Source: Escherichia coli
Lineage (GTDB): Bacteria; Pseudomonadota; Gammaproteobacteria; Enterobacterales; Enterobacteriaceae
Assembly: GCF_030013595.1 (NCBI RefSeq)
Contig: NZ_CP122768.1
Strand: one strand, 5' to 3'
Length of the DNA: 64,000 bases
This document shows positions 45,001 through 51,000 of the stretch, one piece after another; position 1 is the first letter of the stretch, and each line of letters begins with the position of its first letter. A program made the position numbers.

Positions 45001-48000
45001 ATTCTTATTTGGATATTTAAAGGTTGAATTCGAATCTAAAGCTATCTTTGAAATAGAAACATTCGGCTCTATCAAACCTAAAAGATTATATGTTTCTAAC
45101 AATTTTTGATTGTTTTTCGTTTCGAGTAATTGTGTTCTCACAACTCTATTCTGCCATGATTCTTTCATTTGATTGTAAGAATTTGATATTTTTTCATTTT
45201 TAAAATCTAATAAAGGATGATTTTTGAAAGACCACGAACTTTCATGTTCATCCCAATCTGATTTTGAAAGTTCTATGAGTTCGCGAACTTGAGATACAAT
45301 TTCCTGCTTATATTTTTCTATGACAGGCACTTTACCCACAGGGCCTTCATGGAAGTCTAGTGTCGGGGATAAAGCTTCAAGTATTTTTTCCGCTATTGGG
45401 CTATTCATTAATGCCAGCGCATAAAAAAGAGAATCTTGATTGTCACTAAAGCAAACAGAGCCTTTTGTTTCGAAAAGAAAACCCTCAGGGCTGTAGCGCA
45501 TGGATAAATATGATGATGAAATTGTAGACCAAGTAATTCCTTCCTTAAAATAATATCTTTCATTACGGATTACTGAGCCTTCGTAAGATTTCATTTCTGC
45601 ACCATTTTTATCCCAGTTCACAACCAAATCATTGTTTCCAAACCATTTTCTGTACGCCCCTCCTTTGTTGCAGGGAAACCATTTAGAAGCATTTTTGTCA
45701 TCCATGTATGAATTAAATTGGCTAAATTTTGTTAGGGAAATTTCACTCCATCTTCTCAAAAATAAATCATTATTACCTGTGGCAAATCCTTGTCTTGGTA
45801 CAGAGTAAACTTGAACTGGTGTACCCAATGTAAAGCAAGACAGTATTTTAGGGTTTACCCAATATGCAATAGGATAACCGGGTATTTTTTTGAAATCACT
45901 TGCAGTAGCATTTTTTAAACGCTCATTTTTTACAGGGAACTCTTCTGGGTATCCTTTTTCATTGATATCGTCATTTTCCGCATAGGAGAAGGAGCCCTTA
46001 TAAGATGGAGTATTCGTATTTCTAAATACAGTAGCATTTGTACCAAAAGCAATTTTCATAACTCCATTGCCCATATGCACCATAGTTTCGATTGTATAAT
46101 TAGTGAGGATATTTTTACGCATGTTTTCAAAACTGGAAAGGAACATCCAGGATTGCATTGTTACCATTGAGTTGAAACCAGCATTTTTCAACCAAAGGAA
46201 ACCACGCTCAATAAACATAGCAAACAAATCAGACTTACTATCTGGGAAATTATTTTTGGCAAACTCTTTCAGCTCACCATTCATTCCCTTACTGCCCATA
46301 TACGGCGGATTCGCCACCACTGCATCATATCGCTGCGCTAAAATCCACGCCTGCTGAATAAACGGAATAAACGCTTTCGCCGCCGCTTTCTGTTGGAAAT
46401 CGCCCTCCTGTTCCAGGCGATACAGCGCGTCCAGAAATACCTTCAGTTCCGCTTCTTCTTCCTGCGGTATCTGAATCAGTGAGCCCAGCGTTTTTGCATT
46501 CACAAAGCGTTTCAACGTGCGCATCAGCAGCTGATATTCTGCGCTGTCAGTTTGGGTTAACGCGGTATTTTCAGCAAACATATCCCCCATGCTGCCGGTT
46601 TGTACCTGCTGGTGGAAATTGAGCTGCTGCCAGAGTTTGGCGATATCCAGATGCAAACTTTCCTGCAAAGAAACAATATTCAGACGCACATCGGCTTTGT
46701 TGAATAAATCAGATTTTGGGTAAGTCTCCCCCGTAGCGGGTTGTGTTTTCAGGCAATACGCACGCTTTCAGGCATACCTGCTTTCGTCATTTTGTTCAGC
46801 GCTCGTACCAGGGCCATAGCCTCCGCAACCTGACCATCGTAGTCACGCAGCGTCAGTGAACCCCCGAACAGCTGTTTTACCCGGTACATCGCCGTTTCCG
46901 CTATCGAGCGACGGTTGTAATCTGTTGTCCATTTCCACCGCGCATTACTCCCGGTCATTCGCTGATTAGCCACTGCACGGTTACGGTCTGCATATTCACC
47001 GGGCCAGTAACCCGCACCTTTTCGGGGAGGGATAAGCGCGCTGATTTTCTTACGCCGCAGTTCATCGTGACATAGCCGGGTATCGTAAGCGCCATCGGCG
47101 GCGGCTGACCTGATTTTCCGGTGGGTTTGCCGGATTAACCCGGGGAAGGCCTCTGAGTCCGTAACGTTGTTCAGCGACAGGTCAGCGCAGATGATTTCAT
47201 GTGTTTTACTGTCAACGGCGAGATGCAGCTTACGCCAGATACGGCGGCGTTCCTGGCCATGCTTTTTGACTTTCCACTCGCCTTCACCGAAGACCTTCAG
47301 CCCGGTGGAATCAATTACCAGGTGTGCGATTTCACCCCGGGTGGGCGTTTTGAAACTGACATTAACCGACTTTGCCCGCCTGCTGACACAGCTGTAATCC
47401 GGGCAGCGTAGCGGAACGTTCATCAGAGAAAAAATGGAATCAATAAAGCCCTGCGCAGCCCGCAGGGTCAGCCGGAATACGCGTTTAATCACCAGAACGG
47501 TGGTGATGGCGAGATCAGAATAGCGCTGGGGCCTTCCTCGTGATGAAGGCGTTGCCGACTCATACCAGGCCTGAATCGCTTCATCATCCAGCCAGAAAGT
47601 GAGGGAGCCACGGTTGATGAGAGCTTTGTTGTAGGTGGACCAGTTGGTGATTCTGAACTTTTGCTTTGCCACGGAATGGTCTGTGTTGTCGGGAGGATGC
47701 GTGATCTGATCCTTCAACTCAGCAAAAGTTCGATTTATTCAACAAAGCCCCCCCAAACTGTCAGTCCATGCATCTTTCGTCCCTGGTGTGTTACATGAAC
47801 ACACGTCACTTTTATCTCCTGGCAGAATAAACAAATTTTACAGGTTTTTTCTTCCCCGGGATTCAGCCTCACTCCCTGCTTGCTCAGCAACCATCTGCTG
47901 TTGTTGCCGGGTATGACTGTCTGCATGGCATGCATTTGTTGTATCTGTGCTGACTGAATACGATAAAAATTTCTGGTTAATGACGATCGATATCATCTAT

Positions 48001-51000
48001 CGATTCGATCGATTTTATTCAATTGAGACTATCGCATGGCGGGTTTTAAAATGCACTGAGTACTGCTTGCAGCAACGGAGCAATAACGGAGATAATTGAA
48101 ATGAAAAAGGTTTTTGCTGTTTCAGTGGTGGCCGCAGCCTGTGTATTTGCAGCAAATGCAGGTGCTGAGGAAGGTAAAAGCGGTTTTTATCTGACCGGTA
48201 AAGCCGGTGCCTCTGTGGTGTCACTTTCAGACCAGCGTTTCCTGTCAGGAGATGAGGAAGAAACGTCAAAGTATAAAGGCGGCGATGACCATGATACGGT
48301 ATTCAGTGGCGGTATTGCGGCCGGTTATGATTTTTATCCGCAGTTCAGTATTCCGGTTCGTACAGAACTGGAGTTTTACGCGCGTGGAAAAGCTGATTCG
48401 AAGTATAACGTAGATAAAGACAGCTGGTCAGGTGGTTACTGGCGTGATGACCTGAAGAATGAAGTGTCAGTCAACACTCTGATGCTGAATACGTACTATG
48501 ACTTCCGGAACGACAGTGCATTCACACCATGGGTATCCGCAGGGATTGGTTACGCCAGAATTCATCAGAAAACAACTGGTATCAGTACTTGGGATTACGG
48601 GTACGGGTACAGTGGGCGTGAGTCGTTGTCACACTCAGACTCTGCTGACAACTTTGCATGGAGCCTTGGGGCTGGTGTCCGTTATGACGTAACCCCGGAT
48701 ATCGCTCTTGACCTCAGCTATCGCTATATTGATGCAGGTGACAGCAGTGTGAGTTACAAGGATGAGTGGGGCGATAAATATAAATCAGAGGTTGATGTTA
48801 AAAGTCATGACATCATGCTTGGTGTGACTTATAACTTCTGACGAAACTGCTCCTGAAAGATAATAATTACTTATCTTCTGTAATTAAAAGGAAACACCCT
48901 GCAGTAATTATACTGCAGGGTTGTCTGTTATCTGTTTTACAGATAATTTCTGATTTTTATTATCCTGTTCTCTTCATAATAATATTGTCGATATACTCCG
49001 ATGAATATCAGAAAACTGTTTTGTCCGGGCGACACACCCCGGATTTTATTGTTTTTATTCTTTTTTGTTATTTCTGTGATAATCACAATTGCATGCGGAT
49101 ACACTGAGAAGAATGCCACAGGAAATGTGCTGCTTCTGTTTCTCCTTCTTCTCCTTGCACACAGAAATACCCTCACATCCATTACAACGCTGTTATTTCT
49201 GTTCTGTTGTGCACTGTATGCGCCTGCGGGTATGACGTACGGTAAAATCAACAACAGTTTTATTGTCGCGTTGCTGCAGACCACGGCTGATGAGGCTGCA
49301 GAGTTTACCGGGATGATTCCTGTTTATCATTTTCTGGTCAGTGCCGCGATTCTGGTATTCATGGTGATTTTCTGGCGGACACACCACCGCGGTCACCGTA
49401 ACTGGCTGGCACTGCTGCTGTTCGTATTATGCTCTGTAAACAGCTGGCCGTTGCGGATGGTTAAAGGAATTGTTGTGGGAACAACTGACACATTGCGTGA
49501 AATGCAGCGTTATAAACAACTGAGTCAGCACGGGGCTGACAACTGGAAAATCCTGCCGGGAACACCGTTGTATGACTCGATTGTTATCGTTACTGGTGAG
49601 AGTGTGCGCAGGGATTATATGTCGGTATATGGCTATCCCGTGCCAACCACACCATGGCTGAATACGGCTCCCGGTTTATTTATTGACGGCTATACATCGG
49701 CAGCAGCCAGTACCGTACCTTCCCTGAGCCGGACACTGATTTATGACTATGAGCAGAACCCTGACTCCGGCAACAACGTGGTGGCGCTGGCAGCAAAAGC
49801 AGGATACAGCACATGGTGGATATCCAATCAGGGAAAACTGGGAGAGCATGACACACGCATCTCTGTTATTGCTTCTGATGCGGAGCATACCGTTTTCCTC
49901 AAGAAAGGCAGCTTCGCTTCCCGTAAAACGGATGACATGTTGTTGTTACAGGAAACAGAACGTGCGCTGGCGGATAAATCCTCGCCGAAGGTGATTTTCC
50001 TGCACATGATTGGCTCTCATCCGAATCCGTGTGACCGACTTAACTCCTGGCCGAATTATTACCTGGAGCAGTATCCCCGAAAGATTGCCTGTTACCTCGC
50101 CAGCATCAGTAAACTGGATAACTTTCTCGGTCAGCTTGATGGTATCCTTCGCCGGCATTCCCGTCACTTTGCAATGCTTTACTTTTCTGACCATGGGCTG
50201 TCGGTCAGCGACAGTGCTAATCCTGTTCATCATGATGGTCATGTGCAGGGGGGCTACAGCGTTCCCCTGATTATTACCGCCAGTGACATCACGTCTCATC
50301 AGTCCGTCAGCAGGAAAATCAGTGCCCGTAATTTCGCAGGCATTTTTCAGTGGCTGACCGGTATTCGTACCGAAAATATACCGCCATTCAATCCGCTGAC
50401 AGACGAAGATAATGAACCCGTTATGGTTTTTAACGGAGAGAAAAATGTGCCGGCAGACAGTCTGAAACCGCAGCCACTTATTCTTCCGGACCACAGGTAA
50501 TCATATATGGCAAACTGTAATACAGTCTCTTGTACTGAAAAGGATTCTGTATAGAATAGAACCTGTATTCATATCAGCACAAGGGACCACCAAATCCCGG
50601 CAGCATTCCTTACGTCAGTTATCCCGCATCACCCTGTGGGTGCGGGATTTTTTATGATGTTTCTTTTTATTGAATATATATAAATAACGAATAACTGCGG
50701 ATTCTGATAATCCACCTGCAGGGAGCAATCCGGTAAACATTTAATACATCAGTTAATATCGTTTTGCCTTTTTTAACAAAAAATAATCCCCGGGTGGTTC
50801 CCGGGCATTTTCCCGGGAGGATTATTGTTTTAATGGATTATTAATCTTTGCATATTCAAATGGACTGATAAATCTTTCTCTGTTTGCATCCAGAAAATCG
50901 GCCCACCACTGTAGCATAAGTCGACGTTCTTCCAGATGTTCGGCTTTATGGATATACGCAGCACGTACACCATTACGCTCCTGATGGCTCATCTGGCGTT

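Follow-up and report, generated by a model that had tools for sequence, protein, structure and literature searches.

The window analysed here is a 64,000-nucleotide stretch of Escherichia coli DNA (one strand of contig NZ_CP122768.1, assembly GCF_030013595.1), and the element in question is a block of GATC and CGAT repeats, lying 85-120 bp 5' of the ATG of hek (hra1), a gene for an outer-membrane adhesin/invasin. Comparison with known regulatory regions suggests, with a probability that we put at roughly 45%, that this block is a Dam-sensitive OxyR-type operator, placed over the predicted -35 element of hek and conferring ON/OFF control of the agn43 type, in a form that would be weakened in the window. 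An epigenetic switch probably governs the Hek/Hra1/Tia adhesins. An earlier note on this DNA had drawn attention to GATCs at 47985 and 48007 about 100 bp 5' of an outer-membrane protein gene, and the two coordinates proved correct; the string given in it lies at 47981-48016, and the open reading frame (ORF) begins at 48101.

The GATC block and the predicted hek promoter

The elements of the block and of the gene that follows it are, in window coordinates:

47981..48016, + strand: GATC/CGAT repeat block tgacgatcgatatcatctatcgattcgatcgatttt, candidate operator of hek (read from the sequence)
47985..47988: GATC-I, Dam target at the left end of half-site A (sequence)
47998..48001: GATC-II, decayed, TATC in the window and GATC in relatives (G>T at 47998; allele alignments)
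48007..48010: GATC-III, Dam target within the 17-bp spacer of the proposed dyad and inside half-site B (sequence)
47986..48000: half-site A ATCGATATCATCTAT, 9/10 to the OxyR half-site consensus ATAGnTnnnAnCTAT (motif scan)
47999..48013: alternative half-site B ATCGATTCGATCGAT, 8/10, offset by 13 bp from A (motif scan)
48018..48032: half-site D TTCAATTGAGACTAT, 6/10, over the predicted -35 and exactly 17 bp past A, the reduced-OxyR geometry
48023..48052, + strand: predicted sigma-70 promoter, TTGAGA (48023-48028)-18 nt-TAAAAT (48047-48052), 10/12 in a consensus scan
48088..48091, + strand: Shine-Dalgarno GGAG (sequence)
48101..48841, + strand: hra1/hek, 246-aa outer-membrane beta-barrel adhesin/invasin (ORF and protein identity)

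Half-site A, which includes a LysR-family box of the ATC-N9-GAT type, was the top OxyR half-site of the window and the sole one to score 9/10. Together with half-site D it forms a dyad of 15/20, and among 17-bp-spacer dyads in the window only the Ag43 operator (16/20) scored higher. Half-site B may provide an alternative binding register. The -35 enclosed by half-site D belongs to a promoter that is known only as a conserved consensus match; from it, transcription of hek would start near 48059, and a homologous promoter, TTTACC-18-TAAAAT, was predicted for tia. Further downstream, GGAGAT.ATTGAAATG was almost invariant across lineages.

In the mechanism that we propose, a tetramer of a LysR-type regulator, most likely OxyR in the geometry of its reduced form, would bind half-sites A (47986-48000) and D (48018-48032). 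Because half-site D covers the predicted -35, binding would shut off hek. Dam methylation of GATC-I, GATC-II and perhaps GATC-III would block binding and let the promoter fire (ON), and in the OFF state the bound protein would shield the GATCs from Dam. Since binding would protect the GATCs in this way, each state would be inherited, giving phase variation like that of agn43.

We examined how unusual the block is within the window. It forms a cluster of two GATCs within 26 bp adjoining the predicted promoter (three or four GATCs in related alleles). The whole window contained 206 GATCs, compared with 236 ± 14 expected, and 22 neighbouring pairs no more than 22 bp apart; raw clustering was therefore discarded as evidence, two GATCs 22 bp apart not being beyond chance at window scale. 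Locally, GATC-I and GATC-III were the sole GATCs of 3.4 kb of non-IS DNA, where 13.6 ± 3.6 were expected. The octamer CGATCGAT occurred seven times in the window (2.3 ± 1.6 expected), three times at Ag43 and twice at the hek block, and a search of the 64 kb for GATCGNTNNNNNCGATC with at most one mismatch returned two matches only, the Ag43 site (exact) and the hek block (one mismatch). The sole other 13-bp-spaced GATC pair in the window, at 12829-12845, did not match GATCGNTNNNNNCGATC within one mismatch. A 50-codon ORF across the block (47947-48099) was rejected, its frame being disrupted by 4-bp and 9-bp indels between lineages, and no credible Rfam match to a known RNA element was found at the block.

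The product of the gene belongs to the Hra1/Hek/Tia family by its length of about 246 aa, its outer-membrane beta-barrel and its high identity to characterised members. Its identity to UTI89 Hek was 96% over residues 21-246 and that to Tia 64%, an identical protein sequence is labelled 'Heat resistant agglutinin 1' by one source, and Pfam PF13505 was present in related proteins.

Comparison with established Dam/OxyR operators

The regulatory regions of P22 gtr and Mu mom served as controls, and the window supplied an internal positive control:

30090..30137, - strand: Ag43 (flu) Dam/OxyR operator, with GATCs starting at 30090, 30103 and 30122; dyad ATCGATGGTAACGAT-17-ATCGTTTTATTCTAT, 16/20, best of the window

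The Ag43 gene itself (27026-29947, - strand) matched the Ag43/Cah equivalog with 1988 bits, against a cut-off of 1200. GATC pairs exactly 13 bp apart were present in the Ag43, gtr (twice) and mom operators, and those of gtr have been placed within OxyR half-sites (Broadbent et al., PMC2909390). A strict 17-mer, GATCGnTnnnAnCGATC, with 14 specified bases, was searched for in about 170 kb of DNA and was found only in Ag43, in P22 gtr (twice) and in hek/hra promoters of the compared loci (L002-L006, L009, L015, L016). The sequence GATCGATATCATCGATC, which is half-site A in relatives of the window allele, is an exact instance of this 17-mer; the tia type and Mu mom each have one mismatch. In the window itself the second GATC of the 13-bp pair is mutated to TATC and the half-site scores 9/10.

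A dyad scan took the Toledano half-site ATAGnTnnnAnCTAT twice, allowed spacers of 16 and 17 bp and required at least 15/20. It detected only Ag43 (16), P22 gtr (18 and 18) and hek (15) in 121 kb; 0.23 sites were expected in a random 64 kb, and random 250-bp sequences of the composition of the hek upstream region reached 15/20 with P=0.001. The second half-site was stronger in some relatives, with 7/10 in the avian pathogenic (APEC) type and 8/10 at 16 bp in the ETEC1716 type. These results suggest that the block is of the same kind as the known Dam/OxyR operators at the level of motifs.

The agn43 operator and the hek block are alike in several respects. Both have three clustered GATCs (at hek in the ancestral form), of which the first two are 13 bp apart and form GATCGnTnnnAnCGATC; in both a second half-site (a candidate at hek) is 17 bp away and core promoter elements are overlapped (predicted at hek); both control regions adjoin the gene of a self-associating surface adhesin, and in both a GATC island stands beside a GATC-free gene. 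They differ in that the predicted overlap is with the -35 at hek and with the -10 and transcription start at agn43, in that the second half-site scores 6-7/10 at hek and 8/10 at agn43, and in that hek encodes a beta-barrel of the eight-strand type whereas agn43 encodes an autotransporter. The likeness to the Ag43 switch suggested in the earlier note thus holds at the motif level, through the matches to CGATCGAT and GATCGNTNNNNNCGATC, but does not extend to homology of the regulatory regions: blastn similarity was limited to the GATC block of about 50 bp (E 0.01-0.08), in both orientations. About 55 bp past the Ag43 GATC cluster, on the side distal to the gene, a run of ten Gs (30179-30188) could be prone to slippage.

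With gtr, the hek block shares 13-bp GATC pairs in OxyR half-sites 5' of and over the promoter (predicted at hek), and the four-GATC E. coli alleles (L015, L016), with three candidate half-sites in series, are reminiscent of gtr, where sites A, B and C allow alternative occupancy. In gtr, two GATC pairs 51 bp apart surround a perfect, GATC-less central half-site and the dyads score 18/20 each; at hek a single pair is accompanied by one or two lone GATCs at 9-bp steps, and the dyads are weaker. The opvAB promoter resembles hek in having OxyR half-sites (candidate ones at hek) 5' of the -35, GATCs in the weaker ones and lineage-specific natural variation at regulatory positions (PMC4856963, PMC12902445); it differs in that its half-sites are four in number and span about 130 bp and that OxyR activates it in the ON state, and it has no sequence relationship to hek. 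A single-base improvement of a GATC-bearing OxyR half-site abolishes phase variation of opvAB (PMC4856963), and the G>T of the window (CGAT to CTAT) is the same kind of change as these locking substitutions. Ucl fimbriae provide a parallel of another sort, an adhesin promoter of the same pathotype (extra-intestinal pathogenic E. coli) with an upstream OxyR site and natural single-nucleotide polymorphisms (SNPs) that tune expression, but with GATC/Dam involvement not reported and no epigenetic switch (PMC9236248). The layout of the Lrp/Dam switch of the Pap type, with two GATC boxes about 102 bp apart and an adjacent gene for a PapI-like co-regulator (PMC2909390), was rejected for hek: the GATCs are 22 bp apart, no papI- or papB-like ORF is adjacent, and the next GATCs are at 47708 (in IS5) and 51167.

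Conservation among Hek/Hra1/Tia promoters

We aligned 12 diverged Hek/Hra1/Tia promoter lineages and determined the mean pairwise identity of each segment. Promoters that were unrelated by megablast proved to be diverged homologues bearing the same block.

GATC block: 0.81
Upstream flank: 0.53
Segment from the block to the -35: 0.50
-10: 0.92, the highest of all elements
5' untranslated region: 0.52
Shine-Dalgarno to ATG: 0.84

The GATC block was the best-conserved non-core segment; judged from this alignment it is a phylogenetic footprint, with conservation comparable to that of the core signals for expression. The outer GATCGAT and CGATC of the first 17-mer were invariant and its centre was variable (ATCAT, TTTAT, TTTGT, TTTAC), a pattern typical of a dyad-symmetric protein site. 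Of 5426 complete E. coli genomes, 1124, among them that of the type strain ATCC 11775, carried a tia-type 76-mer with the block at no less than 90% identity, and homologues of the Ec-050-type upstream region were detected in 1683 genomes. An exact-pattern scan of 100,044 species-representative genomes gave no match, so the E. coli-type block seems to be limited to accessory DNA that is missing from them.

Homologues in Yersinia were obtained by a protein-based scan of species-representative genomes followed by look-ups of the contigs. These proteins were 39% identical to Hek, and their promoters, otherwise unrelated to the E. coli ones, carried an Ag43-like dyad 165-230 bp 5' of the ATG that scored 15-16/20 and held two or three GATCs (locus L024, 1236-1282; also L027, L028 and L029). 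One example, ATCGGTACTAACGAT-16-ATCGCTATATTCTAT, scored 16/20 with three GATCs. Read on the other strand, the half-sites of Y. similis agreed with those of Ag43 at 14/15 (ATAGAATATAACGAT/ATAGAATAAAACGAT) and 12/15 (ATCGTTACGGCCGAT/ATCGTTACCATCGAT) positions, and a promoter, TTGATC-18-TATATT, was predicted within the dyad. The dyad was conserved in promoters of the Y. similis type and of Y. canariae alike, and the flanks in Y. canariae were different again; variants with two GATCs occurred in other Yersinia strains and in Y. canariae, with GATT in CP158630. We take the Yersinia dyads as an independent recurrence of an Ag43-like element.

Natural alleles of the block

Natural alleles hold four, three, two, one or no GATCs. 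The block of APEC E19035, RL465, GPEC548, Br112 and ES1, GATCGATATCATCGATCGATTCGATCGA, contains three GATCs at intervals of 13 and 9 bp. Aligned with the E. coli alleles, the window allele corresponds to a block of this type minus the middle GATC (T for G at 47998) and, on that alignment, is a partly decayed copy of the three-GATC block, a point missed by the earlier note. Of the 5426 complete genomes, 33 carried the exact window allele and 62 a related three-GATC allele. GATC-I was kept in all sampled alleles in which the first two GATCs are intact, and in three-GATC alleles CGAT is reiterated seven times. Other alleles were as follows:

Ec-050, tia (HM670), 14EC017 and the UTI89 promoter remnant: three GATCs, GATC-N9-GATC-N5-GATC
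CFSAN061769 and ETEC1716: four GATCs, the extra one from a 9-bp insertion
CUWW11: two GATCs
O104:H21: one GATC
F11-type allele: no GATC

The F11-type allele shows three changes in total in the 28-nt block, each of which removes one GATC, and its flanks differ by about one third or more. In the window, the G>T at 47998 changes CGAT to CTAT, a canonical OxyR arm, and raises half-site A from 8/10 to 9/10. Because this substitution removes a methylation target and at the same time improves the half-site, as in opvAB, the window allele is predicted to be biased to the bound (OFF) state or to be less sensitive to methylation. The series from four GATCs to none would tune or lock the switch.

The four-GATC alleles (L015, 1241-1275; L016, 1202-1236) contain three candidate OxyR half-sites in series, the last of them over the -10; their dyads score 8+8 (16-bp spacer) and 8+7 (17 bp). 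UTI89 retains the three-GATC block, the -10 and the Shine-Dalgarno as a remnant (L014, 1541-1620) about 700 bp 5' of hek (2297-3037), with a 122-codon ORF between them; the prototype hek of this strain has another proximal promoter, which lacks the block, and its signal peptide differs as well. As the identity between the Hek proteins of the window and UTI89 begins at residue 21, a recombination breakpoint is indicated at the 5' end of the gene.

GATC-free gene bodies

The hek and phosphoethanolamine-transferase genes (2.4 kb) contained no GATC, where 9.1 ± 3.0 were expected, and neither did the Ag43 gene (2.9 kb; 7.4 ± 2.7 expected). The GATC-free stretches extend over 48011-51166 and 26867-30089, and the nearby GATCs are those of the regulatory clusters only. 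In the RL465, GPEC548 and tia-HM670 loci (L003, L004, L011) the block provided the sole GATCs in 2.6-3.2 kb. Depletion of GATC in genomic islands has already been reported (PMC4659465), and the desert is for that reason supportive and not decisive; it is still common to hek and the Ag43 control.

Taking these observations together, we raise only tentatively, and with the balance of probability against it, a wider proposal: that a Dam/OxyR phase-variation switch acts family-wide on Hek/Hra1/Tia in E. coli (at least 21% of complete genomes) and independently on the Yersinia homologues, that the alleles with four to no GATCs tune or lock it, and that GATC-free gene bodies have been selected to shield the cluster from processive Dam or SeqA.

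Weighing the proposed operator and its alternatives

Several observations weigh against a Dam-sensitive OxyR-type operator at hek, a reading that rests on sequence comparison and a predicted promoter. The window allele has lost one of three GATCs and keeps two only. The general OxyR consensus score was rejected as sufficient proof: a score of 15/20 is expected about 0.2-0.6 times per 64 kb and is not rare genome-wide, so that it is supportive only. The second half-site of the window is weak (6/10 at 17 bp), and in the tia type, the commonest, it scores 5/10 and the best dyad reaches 12/20. GATCs are spaced 13+9 at hek and 13+19 at agn43, GATC-III of hek lies in the spacer and not in the second half-site, and the 13+9 spacing with its overlapping half-site B has no parallel in known OxyR operators. 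The block is also oriented to its gene opposite to that of flu. Alleles without any GATC exist in about 74 genomes, which indicates that methylation sensitivity is dispensable in some lineages, and no such block was found at the Salmonella pagN and Providencia homologues. The suggestion in the earlier note that an adhesin might be controlled through a second Dam-sensitive site is partly supported: it gains from the half-site match, the footprint, the Yersinia analogue and the overlap with a predicted promoter, but is held back by the weak second half-site and the loss of one of the three GATCs.

An unlikely alternative, the one that survives best, is that the block is the conserved operator of another LysR-family or island-encoded regulator, the GATCs being part of the palindrome TCGATCGA / ATC-N9-GAT, which Dam might or might not modulate. 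Conservation speaks for a binding site and names no protein, and ATC-N9-GAT is a generic LysR-family box. The poor full OxyR dyad of the commonest, tia-type allele (12/20) and a 13+9 bp layout with a half-site B unlike those of known OxyR operators would fit such a regulator, as would the helix-turn-helix regulator gene adjacent in some loci (L012, L016). A precedent is HdfR at std, a LysR-type factor blocked by GATC methylation (PMC6735912). OxyR is favoured over another regulator by the strict 17-mer, which in the DNA compared was common only to established OxyR/Dam operators, and by the Yersinia dyads, which are near-copies of the Ag43 OxyR half-sites; moreover, no candidate regulator gene was conserved beside hek across loci.

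The block of the window could also be a relic, non-functional or locked after the loss of GATC-II and the IS5 insertion, with hek constitutive or silenced and without switching; we regard this as quite unlikely. The window allele is rare and derived (33/5426 genomes, two GATCs), decay has gone further, to one or no GATC, in other lineages, and improved half-sites abolish phase variation at opvAB (PMC4856963). Against decay to a relic, two GATCs and the best OxyR half-site of the window persist, and the -35, -10, Shine-Dalgarno and ORF are intact. Wallecha et al. in 2002 are said to have found that agn43 phase-varies with two of its three GATCs.

It is improbable that OxyR acts at hek as a conventional activator, with half-site A centred near -66, a second half-site near -44 (A + N7 + ATCGATTTTATTCAA, 15/20) and a minor role or none for Dam. 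These positions correspond to the classic LysR-family layout of recognition site and activation site, and at the canonical 7-bp spacer the 47986 site is the best match of the window (15/20). In the ON state of opvAB, OxyR site D has its centre at -43 (PMC4856963), and OxyR activates Ucl fimbriae from -82 to -66, where SNPs tune expression (PMC9236248). However, the GATC-bearing OxyR sites of agn43, gtr and opvAB are independent of oxidation state (PMC4856963). The second half-site at the 7-bp spacer is not conserved either (5/10 in three-GATC alleles, 4/10 in the tia type), and conventional activation leaves the strict retention of GATCs and the GATC desert unexplained.

The spacing of GATC-I and GATC-III, 22 bp or about two helical turns, suits SeqA. 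It is nevertheless highly improbable that the block acts through SeqA (hemimethylated GATCs) or H-NS (TCGAT-rich DNA) or is a functionless CGAT repeat made by slippage: the region is AT-rich (38% GC), CGAT recurs seven times in three-GATC alleles and SeqA is an ancillary factor at opvAB (PMC4856963), but the H-NS nucleation motif, rejected at the block, had weak and commonplace matches only (82 window sites with two mismatches or fewer), and a functionless repeat would neither match the -10 in conservation amid flanks about 50% identical nor recur in Yersinia.

Relation to published work

Established Dam-dependent switches are few. In the literature searched, Dam/OxyR control was described for agn43, gtr, opvAB and mom, and Dam control with other partners for pap and std; a 2026 review gives agn43, gtr and pap as Dam ON/OFF examples and leaves Hek, Hra1 and Tia unmentioned (PMC13076061). 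No link of Hek/Hra1/Tia to Dam or OxyR was found in the literature searched in full text, and key subscription papers lie outside it, so that an earlier description is possible. Nor was a description of the transcriptional control of these genes found in the searchable literature; the word 'promoter' is absent from a paper on Hra1 of strain 042, and the supplements of the ST131 methylome list no unmethylated sites. The hek block is a probable new addition to the Dam/OxyR switches.

Hek, Hra1 and Tia mediate autoaggregation and invasion and are common virulence markers of neonatal-meningitis, uropathogenic, avian, enteroaggregative and enterotoxigenic E. coli. If the Dam/OxyR switch is real, it could account for expression in culture being heterogeneous or undetectable, and would be relevant to these proteins as vaccine antigens. 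Ag43 and Hek, self-aggregation adhesins of one island, would then be under the same regulator pair, and the natural allelic series would offer an easily testable system for the effect of GATC number and half-site quality on switching bias.

Neighbouring genes

Upstream of the block lies an insertion sequence:

46749..47717, - strand: IS5-family transposase gene (ORF, annotation of an identical locus, and comparison with the uninterrupted RL465 and GPEC548)

The IS5 element stops about 240 bp 5' of the block and cuts off the ancestral upstream region. It is located between the BREX pglX methyltransferase gene (44191-46689, - strand) and the hek promoter region (44191-47745 in all), and CP61_Sichuan has an identical IS5-hek junction followed by different DNA past the IS. 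That the main role of the block is to switch a divergently transcribed autotransporter gene was rejected: an ESPR pseudogene is present about 0.9 kb away in RL465 and GPEC548, which is too distant, most loci lack such a gene, and there is no credible leftward ORF.

In ETEC1716 an H-NS-family gene (L016, 536-1009) is directly 5' of the hek-like gene, and L012 and L016 have genes for helix-turn-helix regulators 3' of it; such neighbours are possible local regulators of the gene family. Downstream of hek in the window is a CptA/EptA-like phosphoethanolamine-transferase gene (49001-50500), which is also 3' of hek in nearly all related loci (L002-L004, L006-L011, L013, L015, L017). Between the two genes are a terminator-like hairpin with an 11-bp stem (48896-48921) and a promoter-like site (48936-48963).

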